A stretch of 64,000 bases of DNA, from NCBI GenBank assembly GCA_003345545.1, contig PRDH01000026.1:86944-150943 (forward strand), in the 5' to 3' direction. Positions 5,598 through 13,445 of this stretch are shown here, piece by piece. How positions within the stretch are numbered: the first letter of the stretch is position 1; every line of letters starts with the position of its first letter. Source of the DNA: Candidatus Thorarchaeota archaeon. Lineage in GTDB: Archaea; Asgardarchaeota; Thorarchaeia; Thorarchaeales; Thorarchaeaceae. The position numbers and the translations under genes were made by a program. Below the pieces are notes generated by a model that ran no database searches, was not told the origin of the DNA, and was given only the letters and a program-made list of their open reading frames with translations.

Positions 5598-7415
5598 TCA
5601 TGCCTCAGTTTCGGGGACTGCCACCTTGATGCAGGAGAAACCATATTCACCTTCGTACGATATTTCTGCTTGTTCACTTGGTTCAATCATCAATACTATA
5701 GAGTAGCTCTTGACCACATCAGGTTTTGCATTCGAGACATCGAATTTGCCTCTTGTGAGAGCTACCTTATGTCCTGTCTTCAAAGATCGGAGCTCAGGAT
5801 GGTGTTTGGTCATAATGGCCACTCTAGCCTGCAATCTCTCGTTTCGCACTACCAGGGCTTCCTCTCCATTAATTCTTTCTACAGTTAGGACATCCATCCA
5901 GCCCTTCAGTTCATCGCGAATGGACTTGAATGCCACCGGCCCTCCCGTCGCCAAATTGTCAATAGGCGGGAACTCGCCCTGAACTTCGTTGAGAATGGGA
6001 GTGACCATATTCGTATTCCATCCCTTCTTTACAAAGGCCTTCAGCGCGTGCTCTGATATTTTCTCTAGCGCGGGCTTGAATCGGTCGTGAGATGAAGATG
6101 ATACCTTGTAGAGCATCCGGAATGAATTGACTGCGCCCTCCTCCCTGTTGTATGCTACACCAATCTTGTAGGCAGCAACTGCTAGCTGCCACGCATTATC
6201 ATGGTCTTCAAAGAGAAGACTGTATTTCGCTATGTCGTTGAGCATTGCCATTGTTACATCAGGAAATTGCAGCTTTGTCTTTGTGAGGCTGAAACCGCCC
6301 ATGATCTCTGACCGTAGGACTTGCATTGTTATGTAGAAACCCTCTGTGGTTTCCATCATGCTATCAAGAGACAGTCTGTTTATCATCGAATCGTAGAGGC
6401 TGTAGAAGTAGTCAATTTCATCATAATCCTCCCGAATGAGGGATAGGAGGATTCTCACGAAGAAAACTGATGCCTTGAGTTCGTTGTTCTGTACTTCTGC
6501 GAACATGAGTAGACGAAAGGCTTCCTCGCTGACAGCTAGTGCGTCCTCTATTCCTTCACGTGTACCTCTGTACATGTGACAGATTATCTCGAGATAATAA
6601 AGAAAGAGCGTGAGGTCAGCAGCATGACGAACAAGCTTGCCATGAGTTTCTGATTCCTCAGTCAGCGTTGAAACGATTAGTAAACGTTCGATTTCGTTTT
6701 GAACTGCTTCTATCTCAAGCGCCAGAGGATCATACTTACCCTCGCGGAAATCGTCAAACATGTTCGGAATGCCTGCTTTGATATCTTCAAGGAAGTCTAG
6801 CACGAACAATGGCTGGCCTTTCGCCAATTGCTTGTCCAGCCCCTCTGCGGGTCTCTTTACAGCCCTGAGCACACGAAGAGCATGATCCTCAATAACACGA
6901 ATTCTTGTCACAGGATCGTATGACTCCTGCCTTGAAATGCTATACCTGACTTCCTCAGAGTAGATTCTGTCGCGAATTGGCGAGAGAGCTTTCTTCATCT
7001 CATCGTCATCTGCAAGCTCCATTAGCTCGAGGACGAACGCAGAACCAACAATCCCCTCTACTTCTACCTTGAGATCTTGAATAGTATTAAGCAGCTTCAT
7101 GTCGCTTGTTACAATCCTAGATTTCTTCGAGCGCATCGCAGCAAGGATCAGAGATATGTCATTGGGTTGGGGAAGCGAGCTTTCGGGACGCTTTATGCTC
7201 TCTGTTAAAGCCTTGATGTCTTTGGATAGTGTTTCATCGATTTGGATTATCGTTTCCACTTCTCGTCTCAAGTACCAACGCAGCTCCTGGAATACCTGCC
7301 TCGTAATCCACAACTCGATGCCGACTTTGTCTGCTGCTTTCTTGATTATTGCCACATCTTTGGGTCGGTCCGCGAAGCCACTGATAAAGAAGTTCGCATC
7401 AAGGTACACTCGCAT
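5598..7415 (-). CDS. PIN-domain protein with long helical region and beta-rich (OB-like) C-terminus
   Basis: VYLDAN (D6), VFQEL (E44), PNDISL (D86) and IVTSD (D105) form the PIN catalytic acidic set; 605-aa ORF. Confidence 0.75.
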   Translation of the reverse strand: MRVYLDANFFISGFADRPKDVAIIKKAADKVGIELWITRQVFQELRWYLRREVETIIQIDETLSKDIKALTESIKRPESSLPQPNDISLILAAMRSKKSRIVTSDMKLLNTIQDLKVEVEGIVGSAFVLELMELADDDEMKKALSPIRDRIYSEEVRYSISRQESYDPVTRIRVIEDHALRVLRAVKRPAEGLDKQLAKGQPLFVLDFLEDIKAGIPNMFDDFREGKYDPLALEIEAVQNEIERLLIVSTLTEESETHGKLVRHAADLTLFLYYLEIICHMYRGTREGIEDALAVSEEAFRLLMFAEVQNNELKASVFFVRILLSLIREDYDEIDYFYSLYDSMINRLSLDSMMETTEGFYITMQVLRSEIMGGFSLTKTKLQFPDVTMAMLNDIAKYSLLFEDHDNAWQLAVAAYKIGVAYNREEGAVNSFRMLYKVSSSSHDRFKPALEKISEHALKAFVKKGWNTNMVTPILNEVQGEFPPIDNLATGGPVAFKSIRDELKGWMDVLTVERINGEEALVVRNERLQARVAIMTKHHPELRSLKTGHKVALTRGKFDVSNAKPDVVKSYSIVLMIEPSEQAEISYEGEYGFSCIKVAVPETEA

Positions 7416-8007: not shown

Positions 8008-8159
8008 TTCTTATTCTGTCCTTGATTTTCGTTATTACGACAGCGCCCTAAACCAAGGACCGTTGTTGAGTTTCTTCTTGGCTGAAGCATAGATCCATTG
8101 CAGGAATCAGACTCTCGCATAATGCGCTAACAAGCGAGCTAATTAAGAGAGAATTGAAG

Positions 8160-8735
8160 ATGAGCACGATCATGATGGCTCAATACCGAAGAAATTCCTA
8201 TGCCCTTACATTTCTTGTGCTGGCTGTTCTGTTCTCGAGTCTTGTCCTATCTGTCAGCACGACGGGAGTAGTGTCAGTTGCCCAGACACAGGGACAGGGC
8301 GCTACACGCCTAGCGGATGTGAGTCCTTCTATCTACAACTGGGGCATTACCGGAAGACCAAACATGAGTGAGCCATTCACAGTATGGGCAAACGTCACTG
8401 ACGATGATCTCGACCTGGCCAATGTGAGCGTCTATGTTAACGGGCCGAATACAACCATCCATGAGCTAATGTCGTACAATGGGTCTCTTTATGTTGAGGA
8501 CCTCGATGCTTTGCTAGATGCTGGTACATATGACATCTACGTTACTGCCACAGATCTAGCAAACAATACGCGCGTGAGTCGCCATGAATACATCGAACTT
8601 CAAATGGAAACGACGACTGTGGTTGACCCTAATATCACAATGCCATATGTCGTCGCATCAAGTCTATGTATTGGATTGGTTGCTTGCATCGTCGCATACT
8701 TGTATCGACAACGCCAGTTAGCTGGTTCAACATGA
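8160..8735 (+). CDS. Membrane-anchored extracellular Ig-like protein
   Basis: N-terminal signal/TM, FTVWANVTD...YDIYVTATDLANN beta-sandwich, many N-x-S/T sequons, C-terminal TM plus basic tail. Confidence 0.7.
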   Translation: MSTIMMAQYRRNSYALTFLVLAVLFSSLVLSVSTTGVVSVAQTQGQGATRLADVSPSIYNWGITGRPNMSEPFTVWANVTDDDLDLANVSVYVNGPNTTIHELMSYNGSLYVEDLDALLDAGTYDIYVTATDLANNTRVSRHEYIELQMETTTVVDPNITMPYVVASSLCIGLVACIVAYLYRQRQLAGST

Positions 8736-8836: not shown

Positions 8837-11623
8837 ATGTTCAAGTACGCCTTCAAGCGAGTAGTCCGCAGCTATCGCCTCTTCGTTGCCCTCACAATTG
8901 GCGTTCTGTTGGCTACAACTTTCTTTGCGTCCACGAATGTTGCGGCTGACATCATATCAAAGGATGCCCTCAGTGCGACCATCGAGAACATCTTGTATGA
9001 CTTTGATGTAGATTCAGAGAACTCGAATTGGACAATTGCGGACGTAAATGGACTGGAGAATGAGCTAGATGCAGTAGACGGTGTTGTAGGCAGCGCCCAT
9101 TCAACCAAGTTCTACTTTGACTACAATGGCACTGGCACGAACATGACAGTTGCAGCCATAGAAATGTCTTCAGACCTTGCTTCAGGCATACAGGTACTTC
9201 AAGGAAGTTTCTCACTGGGGCCGAACGAAACTTATGTTGTGAGGGGCTCCAAGAATGAGTCACTCTTTTCTCTGGGGCAAGTACTGGAGGTTCAGATTCG
9301 CGTTTCCAGATTGTTTATGCCCCCACAGACAATAGCCAGAAACCTCACAGTCGTCGGATACATCGACTTGCCTCAGAGAAACAGAGAGGCAATAATTCCG
9401 TCATTCGGCGCAGGAATCATGGCGATACTCGAAGGTCTGGGCGGCGGTGCACGCGCATTCACCTTCGACACCTCCTACAATCTTGTGTTAGCTGATTGGG
9501 ACATGGTCATGGATTCTATCTTGCGAGAGGCTGAGACCATTACTGGTCACACTCACCTCGGAATTAGTACCTCAATTCACCTCCAGATAGATAGAGCAAA
9601 TTACCTCAATCCCTATGATATCACGAATTCGCTCCAGAGAATCCAGAACTTAGCAGATGTGATCAGCGAGCACACTAGTGCCTATGGTGCAGGCGTGTCC
9701 TCGAACCTTCAGGGCCGTCTTGTCGTCTATCAGTTCACCCAGCTCATAATGAGTGCGCAGTTTCTTGCATTGTCTCTACCCATCTTTCTTCTGGCCTACT
9801 TCACAGGCACAATGGTTAGCGACGTAGGATACAATTTCAGAAGACGCGAGATAGGCCTCCTACTTACGAAGGGCTACGAACGAGGAACTATTAGGCGGAT
9901 GTTCCTAGTCGAAGGAGCTCTCATCGGAGCAATTGCAGGAGCAGTTTCTGTCTTTCTAGGCACCGCGTCGGCATACATTATCCTAGGCGTTGAGAACCTG
10001 AACATGTTCCAAGCGATTCTTGACAATCTAGTGTCAGTAATCCTTTCTGTCATTCTAGGCATGTTTCTTGGTCTTCTCTCGGTGTGGCGTCCTTCTGGAC
10101 GGGCATCGAAACTCGAAATTCTGGACGCTCTCAAGCAGTACATCTTTGTTGAAGAAACCTCAGAGTACAAGAAACTGCTGCCTACTATCTGTTTGATCTT
10201 GGGAACCTACAAGCTAATTGTCTGGACCCTAGGGATTGACATGAGCGGGCTACTTGGTAGCATAAGCTTCGGGAACCTTTTCGTTTCAATCGCCATCGTC
10301 GCCTGGCTTGCGGTTGATGGTGTGCTTAATAGTATAGGCCCGCTCCTCTTTCTCTACGGCGCGACAAAGGTATTCATTCGAGGCTCGCAGAAGTTCCAGG
10401 AGGCCGTTATGAGCGCAGGCCGTAGGTTCTTTGGTGCTTTCGGGAAGCTAGCTACAAGCAATATCAAACGTCACCCGGCTCGTAATGCAACACTTGTATT
10501 CATAGCTGCTCTAATTGTTTCGTATGGCATCTTTGCTACTGGGAGTCTGTACTCTCAGTACGATTTTACTGAAAGAACCGCTAGATACGATGTCGGTGCA
10601 GATGTGAGGCTCCAGCTCAACGCTGGTACGAATATGACTGAAATGCTCGGAGCTGTTTTGGAGTACGAATCAGTTCAGAATGTGACTCCAGAATACACCC
10701 TGAACCTCCGAGCTGGAACGAGCACAATAGATGCCCGAGGAATTCGACCGGAAGAATGGAGGGACATTGCCTTTTGGGAACCAGGGTGGTTCATTGGCGA
10801 CGTCGAACAAATGTTCGAGGACCTCACAGATGACAGCATAATCCTCTCGCTGGATGTAGCGCAGCGACTTGATCTCTCTGTTGGTGACACAATCAATGTT
10901 GCAGGTCCATTTTCGTCTGGGACACATGCGCTCACAATTGTGGGGCTTGTTGGCTATCTCTCACCAATTGAGCAAATTGCGGGAGGGTTTCAGTTCTCCA
11001 TTGGTGGTGACTACACATCCTTTGTGTCTGAGGGCTTTCTCAACTCCAGTTTGCTAATCTATACATCGACTGCCAATGTGCTCATCGACACTGTGAACAA
11101 CACGAATGGTACCCAACTGCAGGAACAGCTGGCAGCTGAGCTCAGCGGGGTCTATGCAAGTTACTCGGTCACAACTGAGCTAACAGATTATCAGACTAGC
11201 GTTATCAGGAGCGGCACAACAAAGATACAGTGGCTGGCAATTTCATTCGCTGTCATTCTCGCAATGGTTGGTACTGCATTGGTGGTGATTCTTACTCTAC
11301 AGGAGAAGGATGCTGAGATAGCTCTCCTCTCAGTGCGCGGCTTCAGCAAATGGCAATTGTTCAAGACTCTCTTGGCTGAGGTAATGGTGACTGTCTTCTT
11401 TGCACTTCTGCTTGGCATAGCCGTGGGATATATCGAGAACCTTGGACAAATCGCCTCGCTCAATGAGAGCACAACGGGCCTGATCCGGTACAGAATGGCA
11501 TTAGGAGGGACAGCGGGCTACACGATTCTGCTACTTCTCTCTGTGGTGCTGTTAGCCGCTATTATTCCTGTTTGGTGGTCTTCAAGGAGGCCGGAATCGA
11601 AAATTGATCTACTAAGGGTATAG
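8837..11623 (+). CDS. FtsX/MacB-family (type VII) ABC permease, duplicated architecture
   Basis: Two FtsX units (RRREIGLLLTKG; KDAEIALLSVRG) and two large extracellular domains. Confidence 0.88.
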   Translation: MFKYAFKRVVRSYRLFVALTIGVLLATTFFASTNVAADIISKDALSATIENILYDFDVDSENSNWTIADVNGLENELDAVDGVVGSAHSTKFYFDYNGTGTNMTVAAIEMSSDLASGIQVLQGSFSLGPNETYVVRGSKNESLFSLGQVLEVQIRVSRLFMPPQTIARNLTVVGYIDLPQRNREAIIPSFGAGIMAILEGLGGGARAFTFDTSYNLVLADWDMVMDSILREAETITGHTHLGISTSIHLQIDRANYLNPYDITNSLQRIQNLADVISEHTSAYGAGVSSNLQGRLVVYQFTQLIMSAQFLALSLPIFLLAYFTGTMVSDVGYNFRRREIGLLLTKGYERGTIRRMFLVEGALIGAIAGAVSVFLGTASAYIILGVENLNMFQAILDNLVSVILSVILGMFLGLLSVWRPSGRASKLEILDALKQYIFVEETSEYKKLLPTICLILGTYKLIVWTLGIDMSGLLGSISFGNLFVSIAIVAWLAVDGVLNSIGPLLFLYGATKVFIRGSQKFQEAVMSAGRRFFGAFGKLATSNIKRHPARNATLVFIAALIVSYGIFATGSLYSQYDFTERTARYDVGADVRLQLNAGTNMTEMLGAVLEYESVQNVTPEYTLNLRAGTSTIDARGIRPEEWRDIAFWEPGWFIGDVEQMFEDLTDDSIILSLDVAQRLDLSVGDTINVAGPFSSGTHALTIVGLVGYLSPIEQIAGGFQFSIGGDYTSFVSEGFLNSSLLIYTSTANVLIDTVNNTNGTQLQEQLAAELSGVYASYSVTTELTDYQTSVIRSGTTKIQWLAISFAVILAMVGTALVVILTLQEKDAEIALLSVRGFSKWQLFKTLLAEVMVTVFFALLLGIAVGYIENLGQIASLNESTTGLIRYRMALGGTAGYTILLLLSVVLLAAIIPVWWSSRRPESKIDLLRV

Positions 11624-11632
11624 GTGCGAAAG

Positions 11633-12526
11633 ATGATGAACAATACAGCATACATTCAGACCGATGACTTGGTGAAGGTGTTTCGCCTCGGAAATGTTGA
11701 GGTGCAGGCCTTGCGAGGCTTGTCGATGCAGGTCAATAAGGGGGAGATGGTGGCCATTGTTGGAGCATCGGGCTCTGGAAAGACCACGCTGCTCAATATC
11801 CTGGGTGGCATTACGAGAGCTACTGCTGGAAGGACCGTGGTAGCGGGATATGATGTCACAAACGCCAATCCTACCCAGCTAGTTGCCCTTCGCCGGGAAA
11901 TCGTCGGCCATATCTTCCAAGAACTGAACCTTCTTAGTACCCTCACCGCGTACGAGAATGTCGAGCTTCCGATGCTTGCCGCTAAGAAGGATGGAAGTAC
12001 CAGAAAGAGGCGAGTTGAGGAACTCCTCTCAGTAGTTAGCCTCGAGGATAGAAAAGACCACAAGCCCGATGAGCTCTCTGGGGGCGAGCGTCAACGAGTG
12101 GCCATCGCCGCTGCAATTGCAAATGACCCAATGGTATTACTCTGTGACGAACCCACCGGGGACCTCGACACGGAAACTGGTGGCGTCATTGTCCAGTACT
12201 TGCACAAAGTGAACAAGGAATATGGTAAGACAATCATCATGGTGACACACGATCCCTCTATTGCTAGGCAGTGCGATAGAATCTACAGGATTCGTGATGG
12301 CCAGATAATCTCAGTCCAGTCTCCTACTGCAGACCAGGAAATGGGTGCAGCATCCAGAGTCGACGTCGTTAGAGAACGCCTAAAGGAGATCAAAGATGAG
12401 ATTACTAGACTTGACGAAGCCGCAAGAAAAGGTACTCTCGACCTTGGCGTGTTCGCAGGGCAAAGGACGAGACTAGTCGACAGGCAGAAGATATTCGAAG
12501 AGGAACTCCACCGACTAGGTCTATAG
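11633..12526 (+). CDS. LolD/MacB-type ABC ATPase with C-terminal helical extension
   Basis: GASGSGKT, LSGGERQRVA, LLCDEPTGDLD and VTHD; AGGTG RBS before ATG 11633. Confidence 0.92.
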   Translation: MMNNTAYIQTDDLVKVFRLGNVEVQALRGLSMQVNKGEMVAIVGASGSGKTTLLNILGGITRATAGRTVVAGYDVTNANPTQLVALRREIVGHIFQELNLLSTLTAYENVELPMLAAKKDGSTRKRRVEELLSVVSLEDRKDHKPDELSGGERQRVAIAAAIANDPMVLLCDEPTGDLDTETGGVIVQYLHKVNKEYGKTIIMVTHDPSIARQCDRIYRIRDGQIISVQSPTADQEMGAASRVDVVRERLKEIKDEITRLDEAARKGTLDLGVFAGQRTRLVDRQKIFEEELHRLGL

Positions 12527-12575
12527 TGCGATACGTTTTTGATGCACCTGCTCTCCCTAGTTTCAAGTGATCTTG

Positions 12576-13445
12576 ATGGCATTACCCATAATGATGGTGC
12601 ATGGCGGTGCAACAAGATTCCAGACCAGATTCCATAAGGATATTCTGAACGCTGTTGAGAAAGCTGCTCGCACGGGGATGTGTGTTTTCACCAAAGGGGG
12701 TTCCTCACTGGACGCTGTAGAGGCCGCCGTATATGTTCTTGAAGAAACGAATCTATTCACTGCAGGTCGGGGCGCAAGCAAGAACCAAGACGGAGAGATC
12801 GAATTGGATGCTATGATCATGGACGGCAACCGTCTTGAGAGTGGCGCCGTAATGGCCGTTCAAGACATTATTCATCCCATCTCTCTTGCACGTTATGTGC
12901 TGGAGAGAACCTCGAACTATCAAATTGCAGGAAAGGGAGCAAATAGGCTCTACCAGAAGATGATAGCTGAAGGATATCGCGAGGAGGTGGATACCAAGAG
13001 AACATCCGTGCCCAGTATCGCAGCAGGATGTGACACAGTCGGAGCAGTTGCCGTCGATGCAGACGGTCGAATGGCTGCTGCAGCTTCTACGAGTGGCTGG
13101 CCGGGCAAGCTCGTGGGAAGAGTCGGTGACTCCCCGATCATCGGAGCAGGAGTCTATGCCAACGATGTGGCTGCAGCTTGCTGCACGGGAAAAGGCGAAC
13201 AGATACTGAGGATTACGATGGCGAGAATGGCGGTTTATCACGTTGAGGATGGCTTGACTGTCGAGGAAGCTGCCGAGAGGATAATGGGCGAATTGCGACA
13301 GAAGACAAGTGGAGAAGCAGGCATTATTCTGGCTGATTCCAGGGGGAATATGACTGTTCGATTCGACACTACCCATATGCCCACTGCAATACTGTGCTCC
13401 GATTCGAATGTCCCCTATGCATCAATGGTTCCCAAATGGCCTTGA
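12576..13445 (+). CDS. iaaA: Isoaspartyl peptidase / L-asparaginase (Ntn hydrolase)
   Basis: VHGGA, ELDAMIMDG, D-TVGAVA (nucleophile Thr) and GRVGDSPIIGAG. Confidence 0.88.
   Translation: MALPIMMVHGGATRFQTRFHKDILNAVEKAARTGMCVFTKGGSSLDAVEAAVYVLEETNLFTAGRGASKNQDGEIELDAMIMDGNRLESGAVMAVQDIIHPISLARYVLERTSNYQIAGKGANRLYQKMIAEGYREEVDTKRTSVPSIAAGCDTVGAVAVDADGRMAAAASTSGWPGKLVGRVGDSPIIGAGVYANDVAAACCTGKGEQILRITMARMAVYHVEDGLTVEEAAERIMGELRQKTSGEAGIILADSRGNMTVRFDTTHMPTAILCSDSNVPYASMVPKWP

Follow-up and report, generated by a model that had tools for sequence, protein, structure and literature searches.

Described type VII ABC transporters include MacB, LolCDE, FtsEX, YbbAP, BceAB and HrtBA. In E. coli YbbAP and in BceAB, the permease is a fused double-FtsX protein and the ATPase, 225-248 aa long, has no tail. 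In other ABC systems, the MlaF 'handshake' tail, the C-terminal helices of EcfA/EcfA' and the regulatory domains of MalK/MetN contact the partner nucleotide-binding domain (NBD) or regulators. Our literature search on archaeal type VII ABC tails returned nothing relevant.

Short helical hairpins have been described in other contexts. Strong conservation of a Gly was described for the SHOCT domain (Eberhardt et al. 2013, PMC3581485), and the same paper reports an assay in which a SHOCT domain failed to oligomerise (PMC3581485). The steadiness box (SB) of ESCRT-I and the hairpin of CdvA were linked by HHpred, and an ancestral hairpin in TACK plus Asgard archaea was proposed (PMC10936438). ESCRT-I has been reported for Asgard archaea and eukaryotes only, and Thorarchaeota/Thorarchaeia have been reported to be without UEV-Vps23.

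In this study, we examined an ABC ATPase with a C-terminal tail encoded in a 64,000-nucleotide stretch of a Thorarchaeota genome, hereafter the window. The original prediction held that the tail is an SB-like hairpin which may couple the transporter to ESCRT-type membrane remodelling. Our preferred reading, to which we assign a probability of roughly 0.6, is that the tail is an accessory hairpin intrinsic to the transporter, with a turn of the SB/CdvA/SHOCT class, in one archaeal type VII ABC family.

The ATPase and its locus

The ORF at 11624-12526 on the forward strand encodes a 300-aa product in the ORF list of the window. The true start is probably the ATG at 11633, because M4 is the first residue both of close homologues and of the Atlas record. 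The Walker A/B, signature and H-loop motifs (GASGSGKT, LSGGERQ, DEPTG and THD) can be read in the sequence, and Pfam ABC_tran matched residues 30-178 (1.8e-34). The best NCBIfam models were MacB (5.6e-69), LolD (2e-65, spanning residues 11-229), DevA, FtsE and YbbA, all under their equivalog cut-offs. Furthermore, the AlphaFold2 model of the whole ATPase (mean pLDDT 86) superposed on the solved NBDs of MacB, MJ0796, LolD, FtsE, YbbA, BceA and HrtA with 37-47% identity; in Foldseek, the MacB NBD (5lj9) aligned over 226 columns at 46% identity with an E of 6e-28. Since these solved type VII NBDs align over about 226 columns only and leave the tail region uncovered in Foldseek, the tail is an add-on. 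By both its NBD and its FtsX permease, the system is a type VII ABC transporter of the MacB/LolD/FtsE type.

Table 1 Features of the transporter locus, with positions in the window
Feature	Positions	Strand	Evidence
Membrane-anchored protein of 193 aa, weak Ig-like domain; its gene opens the conserved three-gene unit	8154..8735	+	Pfam Big_13
928-aa double-FtsX (type VII ABC) permease	8837..11623	+	Pfam FtsX 7.6e-19, two stretches
NBD of the ABC ATPase, aa 1-232	11624..12319	+	Pfam ABC_tran, NCBIfam, Foldseek
Flexible linker, aa 233-242	12320..12349	+	AlphaFold2 pLDDT <50, residues 235-243
Tail helix 1, aa 241-269	12344..12430	+	AlphaFold2
Turn G270-T-L-D273, SHOCT/SB-like 'G-x-I/L-D/T' cap	12431..12442	+	AlphaFold2 models
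Tail helix 2, aa 274-297	12443..12514	+	AlphaFold2
C-terminal signature EEELHRLGL, aa 292-300	12497..12523	+	33-sequence tail alignment A2

The genes around the tailed ATPase encode the permease, the Ig-like protein, a PIN protein and an asparaginase. The stop codon of the permease abuts the start of the ATPase ORF. The neighbours had been correctly described beforehand as an FtsX-like permease of 928 aa and an Ig-like surface protein, the Ig-like match of the latter being weak (E=0.001 for Big_13, under the cut-off). The order Ig-like protein, permease, ATPase is kept in 7 Thorarchaeota loci, in which the Ig-like protein is syntenic upstream of the permease with 37-86% identity. In every locus examined, a double-FtsX permease of 915-980 aa lies directly upstream of the tailed ATPase. 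Such pairs were also found in the Asgard families f14, f2 and f4, with one tandem duplicate among them. The transporter family is archaeal and consists of a single double-FtsX permease of about 930-980 aa and an ATPase of about 300 aa.

Distant paralogues, whose permeases are 24-26% identical, keep hairpin-tailed ATPases as well. Their tails show the same 'EFKKGHITADEF'-type turn and a different end, ...EEExKRYTLV. When the tail of one of them (P0184, of this 'KRYTLV' subfamily) was used for a homologue search, only the query itself was returned.

Structure and conservation of the tail

Positions 12353-12526 of the window correspond to aa 244-300 and the stop codon. A helical hairpin had been predicted at these residues, and the quoted string is present in the translation. 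The hairpin is real at this position, as judged from AlphaFold2 models of the full-length protein and of the tail only. When the tail was modelled alone from an alignment of 33 sequences, the mean pLDDT was 96.8, and the first helix (H3-27) reached about 97. The predicted tail of about 58 aa is an antiparallel two-helix hairpin, in which helices of about 25 and 24 residues are joined by a 4-residue turn. In the linker preceding it, P234 and T235 are conserved and the rest is variable.

Conservation was assessed with the 33-sequence alignment (A2), whose members are 29-91% identical to the window's tail, and with a non-redundant tail set. Helix 1 carries the a/d heptad V246, V249, L253, I256, I260, L263 and A267, and in the non-redundant set conservation reaches 96% at both R252 and L263. 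Only 67% of the members of this set have the turn Gly, and 89% have the I/L/V that comes after it. In helix 2, F/Y277 is conserved in 100%, L284 in 89% and R281 in 72% of the same set. Two core 'd' positions of this helix are occupied by conserved Arg/Lys, and no second hydrophobic face or stripe on the hairpin was evident from residue conservation in the non-redundant set. The conserved charged residues of the tail are R252, E255, E259, D264, R281 and K/R288, together with those of EEELHR.

The EEELHRLGL signature is the most conserved tail motif in the subfamily of the window. A2 shows no variation at E294, R297 and G299, and conservation of at least 90% at E292 and H296. The value of 100% for E294 and G299 in the non-redundant set is partly due to its construction, since the selection pattern required both residues, and the unbiased figure is that from A2. 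The signature has no counterpart in steadiness boxes.

In the scans carried out, the hairpin had no covering Pfam model. An NCBIfam scan of the tail gave noise only, and an ESM Atlas search with the tail gave no usable match. The tail is an uncharacterised, family-specific hairpin.

Distribution of the tail and the permease

Identity of the tail ranges over 54-100% in 110 protein clusters, which are named Thorarchaeota with a few Odin- or Promethearchaeota. Ten loci with the tail that carried a GTDB species assignment were all from Thorarchaeota MAGs (10/10). Among 400 Asgard genomes, the tail was found in 65 of the 85 genomes of family f1 (Thorarchaeota-type), in 18 of the 19 of f14 and in 1 of the 135 of f22, and sporadically in f2, f4 and f6. 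The distribution of the permease mirrors that of the tail, with 39/43 in f1, 18/19 in f14 and 0/40 in f22.

Beyond the Asgard archaea, at least 20 clusters formed a further subfamily, whose members are Bathyarchaeota/Bathyarchaeia and 'Crenarchaeota archaeon 13_1_40CM' according to their source names, the only basis for the taxonomy of the Bathyarchaeia members. Bathyarchaeia are a TACK group. The best reading of this distribution is that tail and transporter were inherited together, in Bathyarchaeia as well as in Thorarchaeota and further Asgard families.

Resemblance to the steadiness box

The TSG101 peptide given for comparison in the original prediction is identical to PDB 6vme_B residues 31-63, and a hand count gave the same result as before, 14 identities in 33 ungapped positions. 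When the 70-aa tail was compared with all PDB sequences by phmmer, the top match was TSG101 in the same register, with an E of 0.23 and 15.6 bits, which is not significant. As a scale for these values, the human TSG101 peptide retrieves yeast Vps23 at only 18 bits. The 14 identities fall into two groups. Seven of them (D258, E265, A266, D273, L274, V276 and Q288) are at positions variable within the tail family; this half is specific to the genus. The conserved ones are the heptad hydrophobics I256, I260, L263 and L284, K/R268, G270 (67%) and the aromatic residue at 277.

With the A2 family profile as the query against the PDB, TSG101 was lost and yeast Vps23 appeared with an E of 0.76 at about rank 31. 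This search was led by designed coiled coils and by motifs of the ApcE phycobilisome linker ('LEsKvknGsIsmkEF'), and ribosomal proteins also outranked yeast Vps23. HMM searches failed in both directions. The Pfam model Vps23_core (PF09454) did not match the whole ATPase or the tail at E<=10, and it was absent from the 25 Pfam families that the 33 tails hit most frequently. A profile built from 20 Asgard SBs (A3) left the tail in its own genome unmatched and gave a match on contig C44 only. When the tail profile was searched against 1.84 billion representative proteins, 89 matches were obtained at E<=1e-3, nearly all of which were C-termini of ABC ATPases or fragments of these at contig ends; the remaining ones were SHOCT-like repeat proteins, phage tape-measure-like proteins and coiled coils, and there was no ESCRT-I protein among them.

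In profile-profile comparison with hhalign, the tail aligned with the 20 Asgard SBs at a probability of 82.6-84.0% (P about 8e-6). The alignment covered 31 columns, tail 14-44 against Vps23_core 23-53, which is again the register noted at first. However, the reversed SB still scored 24.0 versus 29.2 for the real one.

When the tail-only model was searched with Foldseek, hairpins of the ESCRT-I headpiece (Vps23-C, TSG101 and partner chains) filled ranks 1-8 and 10-12. They superposed over 52-58 columns at TM 0.86-0.91 and an rmsd of 0.7-1.4 A; the E values of 0.16-0.9 are not significant. In the sequence-independent VIA-align, the top three were yeast Vps23 with Z 9.3-9.6 over all 58 residues, where rows within Z 1 count as tied. 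In total, 72 chains reached Z>=8. Among them were the CdvA filament hairpin (9s9g, Z 8.8), coiled coils of serine integrases, EncB and designed hairpins. On these models, the SB is nominally the nearest solved structure, yet its nearness is indistinguishable from that of other hairpins.

These results bear on the possibility that the tail is a remote homologue of the SB and the CdvA hairpin through an ancestral archaeal module, without necessarily touching ESCRT. The nominal top rank in three independent searches leaves room for a real relationship to ESCRT-I. The hairpin length fits the SB and not the 28-aa SHOCT domain, and an ancestral hairpin of this kind has already been proposed, as described above. 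Against this stand the sub-significant or tied scores, the loss of TSG101 with the family profile and the score of the reversed SB. Taken together, these findings make remote homology a tenable but less likely reading. The part of the original prediction that called the tail an SB-like hairpin holds as a description and in its register, with scores that are sub-significant or tied.

Cross-reaction with SHOCT, GvpG and CdvA hairpins

A generic hairpin matched the tail as well as the SB did or better. In hhalign, the tail aligned with 30 Asgard SHOCT domains at 84.7% (P 6.6e-6), compared with at most 84.0% for the SB, and here the reversed control was clean, the score falling from 25.8 to 12.7. 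SB and SHOCT themselves aligned at 94.0% (P 1.5e-7). Among Pfam families, GvpG was hit by the largest number of tails, 11 of the 33, with a best value of 5e-4 under the gathering cut-off.

The tail might be a long SHOCT domain, a member of PF09851 or its clan. Its C-terminal site, its two amphipathic helices and a turn of Gly followed by an aromatic residue would agree with this, as would the fact that non-ABC proteins retrieved with the tail profile carry Pfam SHOCT (P0171, 5e-13; P0139, 8e-11). However, Pfam SHOCT did not match the tail at E<=10 or anything in its own genome at E<=10 among 30 candidates scored, and it was outside the 25 Pfam families most often matched by the 33 tails. Moreover, the tail has 58 aa versus 28 aa and long heptads, and its Gly is only 67% conserved. 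Membership in SHOCT is therefore unlikely.

A glycosyltransferase with SHOCT repeats, P0149, scored 38 bits on Pfam Vps23_core. These hairpin profiles therefore cross-react. Since SB-like matches by sequence, HH comparison or Foldseek can stem from the generic hairpin design of SHOCT, GvpG and CdvA, calls of 'SB domain' in Asgard proteomes need controls. The value of 94% between Asgard SB and SHOCT may also interest work on the origin of ESCRT-I.

A broader version of the homology reading places the tail in an ancient archaeal hairpin lineage that gave rise to SB and CdvA and is perhaps rooted in SHOCT-type hairpins. We regard this as doubtful; if it is true, this assembly module would for the first time be placed outside ESCRT, on a transporter, and this in TACK as well as Asgard archaea. 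The tail, SB, CdvA and SHOCT hairpins may have a deep common origin, which over a motif of about 30 columns is indistinguishable from convergence. The idea that such tails were a reservoir from which the SB evolved is neither shown nor excluded by the comparisons above.

Relation to ESCRT in the genome and in Asgard archaea

The original prediction also proposed that the tail may physically couple the ABC machine to ESCRT-type membrane remodelling, which would occur by its joining an SB headpiece-like bundle. In favour of this are only the resemblance itself and the presence in the same genome of ESCRT-III (Snf7) genes and one protein with an SB-like hairpin. However, these genes are on contigs C19 and C44, whereas the transporter is on C26, and no ESCRT gene was seen in the syntenic loci of tailed ATPases that were inspected. 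BLASTP gave no alignment between the tail and the SB-like hairpin of its own genome.

Two further candidates in this genome were rejected. The sole match to Vps23_core at E<=10 (E 0.13, on C38) is spurious and lies antisense to or overlapping with a ribosomal-protein/Rpo region. A weak match to Pfam VPS28 (E 0.1) is not Vps28; it coincides with the match to the SB profile at the C-terminus of a GIFT-domain protein.

In the 400 Asgard genomes, Vps23_core matched in 109 at E<=0.001, in frames of about 260, about 500 and about 670 aa. None of these matches was on an ABC tail where coordinates were compared, including in f14, the family in which tail and Vps23_core coexist. In f1, the tail is common (65/85) and Vps23_core was found in 1 of the 85 genomes; in f22, Vps23_core was found in 37 of the 135 genomes and the tail in one. 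Hence, from their distribution and the separate contigs, the tail and ESCRT-I neither co-vary nor are linked. Lineages that lack ESCRT-I, such as f1 and the subfamily of Bathyarchaeia, commonly carry the tail, and Thorarchaeia are reported to lack UEV-Vps23. These results leave physical coupling to ESCRT very improbable. Together with the absence of a significant SB profile match and the equal or better match to generic hairpins, they are largely the outcomes that the original prediction had named as refuting it.

Proposed role of the tail in the transporter

Our preferred reading, a hairpin intrinsic to the transporter, draws on the fold of the tail, its conservation, its strict association with the permease and the failure of all searches here to detect a link to ESCRT. 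The likeness to the SB would then reflect a simple common design, heptad helices joined by a turn of the form 'L-D/E-x-x-F-K/R-x-G-x-I-x-x-x-x-F/Y', which SHOCT, GvpG and CdvA-type hairpins would share with the tail.

By analogy with other ABC ATPases, a role for the tail inside the transporter can be suggested. The flexible linker would tether an autonomous hairpin to the NBD. Most likely, the hairpin would act as an arm by which the two copies of the ATPase are tethered or docked under the one fused permease, or by which their closure is regulated. The docking surface would consist of R252, E255, E259, D264, R281 and EEELHR, and its partner could be the second NBD, the hairpin of that NBD or the cytoplasmic face of the permease. 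A simple homodimer in the form of a four-helix bundle was also considered and is unlikely, because of the conserved Arg/Lys at the core 'd' positions of helix 2; a second hydrophobic stripe was not evident either. As the ATPases of YbbAP and BceAB are tail-less, the tail is no general requirement of the double-FtsX architecture.

If this reading is right, the tail elaborates a type VII ABC transporter in an ordinary, though so far uncharacterised, way, and the hairpin marks one archaeal permease/ATPase family. The tail would then provide a handle on the arrangement of two NBDs under a fused double-FtsX permease.

Comparison with known systems

The ESCRT-I SB (TSG101/Vps23; PDB 6vme, 2f66 and 2caz) and the tail are both antiparallel hairpins of about 58 aa with a 4-residue Gly turn, and the motif 'L-x-E-A/K-x-R/K-x-G-x-I/L-D-x-x-x-F/Y' is common to them. 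They differ in context, the tail being attached to an ABC NBD and the SB to a UEV/coiled-coil stalk or to Vps28. Unlike the SB, the tail has an invariant end of its own, EELHRxG, is found where ESCRT-I is lacking and shows no linkage to ESCRT genes.

SHOCT (PF09851) resembles the tail in being a C-terminal two-helix module with a Gly-x-I/L-T/D-x-x-E/D-F/Y turn. It differs in its length of 28 aa, whereas the tail has long heptad helices on both sides of the turn; the Pfam SHOCT model fails on the tail, in which the Gly is also less conserved. The CdvA-like (PF18822) and GvpG-like (PF05120) hairpins belong to the same cross-reacting class as the tail, but their contexts differ from that of the tail and all matches of the tail to them are under the gathering cut-offs.

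The extensions of MlaF, EcfA/EcfA' and MalK/MetN are compared with the tail as proposed functional analogues only, and we claim no relationship in sequence or fold. The closest known counterparts of the transporter as a whole are MacB, LolCDE, FtsEX, YbbAP, BceAB and HrtBA. Its NBD is 37-47% identical to those of solved members, its FtsX-type permease is encoded next to it, and the permease has the fused double-FtsX form of YbbP and BceB. Whereas the solved type VII NBDs are without a C-terminal hairpin, the NBD of this archaeal transporter family carries one.

Gene context, start codon and copies of the transporter

The transporter genes lie between two conserved neighbors, and synteny across the Thorarchaeota loci was observed both for the PIN-domain gene (77-97% identity) and for the Asparaginase_2 gene (71-88% identity). 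The listed GTG start of the ATPase (11624) immediately follows the permease stop codon (window 11621-11635). Because the homologues begin at the methionines of MMNN..., the ATG at 11633 is more likely to be the true start; the residue numbers of the ATPase may be 3 too high.

In the tandem duplication on G311:C39, the permeases were 924 and 927 aa and the tailed ATPases were both 302 aa. At G321:C73, the end of a membrane-protein-like ORF resembled the final NBD strand of the ATPase, and an in-frame stop was followed by a 73-aa ORF corresponding to the complete tail hairpin. The locus resembles a copy of the transporter genes that has undergone rearrangement or decay.

Features of the transporter loci and of hairpin-bearing proteins
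Feature	Location	Strand	Remarks
PIN-domain protein, 605 aa	window 5598-7415	-	upstream of transporter, divergent
Asparaginase_2 gene	window 12567-13445	+	downstream of transporter
Permease/tailed ATPase pair	L127:2017-9519 (G311:C39)	+	duplicated in tandem
Membrane-protein-like ORF	L056:3-1214 (G321:C73)	+	end '...ADRICRISDG'
453-aa protein	L129:331-1692 (own genome, G000:C44:139442-140803)	+	GIFT domain, coiled coil, SB-like hairpin
Very long open frame, reported 1668 aa	L054 (G007:C9:188500-195000)		two hairpin matches

Steadiness-box-like and SHOCT hairpins

In the 453-aa protein, Pfam identified an IFT52 GIFT domain (2.1e-15). The protein also has a long coiled coil and, at its C-terminus, an SB-like hairpin (E 0.001, Asgard SB profile); the N-terminal part of Pfam VPS28 also matched weakly. 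An ESCRT-III (Snf7) gene was found about 16 kb away on the same contig. This protein may be an SB-bearing protein specific to Thorarchaeota. Separately, the two matches in the very long frame were weak (E about 3e-4), to tail-like or SHOCT-like hairpins.

When Asgard SBs (L065-L094) were compared with Asgard SHOCT domains (L095-L124) using hhalign, the match reached 94.0% (P 1.5e-7), whereas the reversed control was low (score 11.1 versus 33.0 unreversed). Furthermore, P0149, a glycosyltransferase with SHOCT repeats, scored 38 bits on Pfam Vps23_core. The small part of the ESCRT literature examined does not mention this likeness. Judging from these profiles, SB and SHOCT could possibly share a deep link, or else cross-react systematically.
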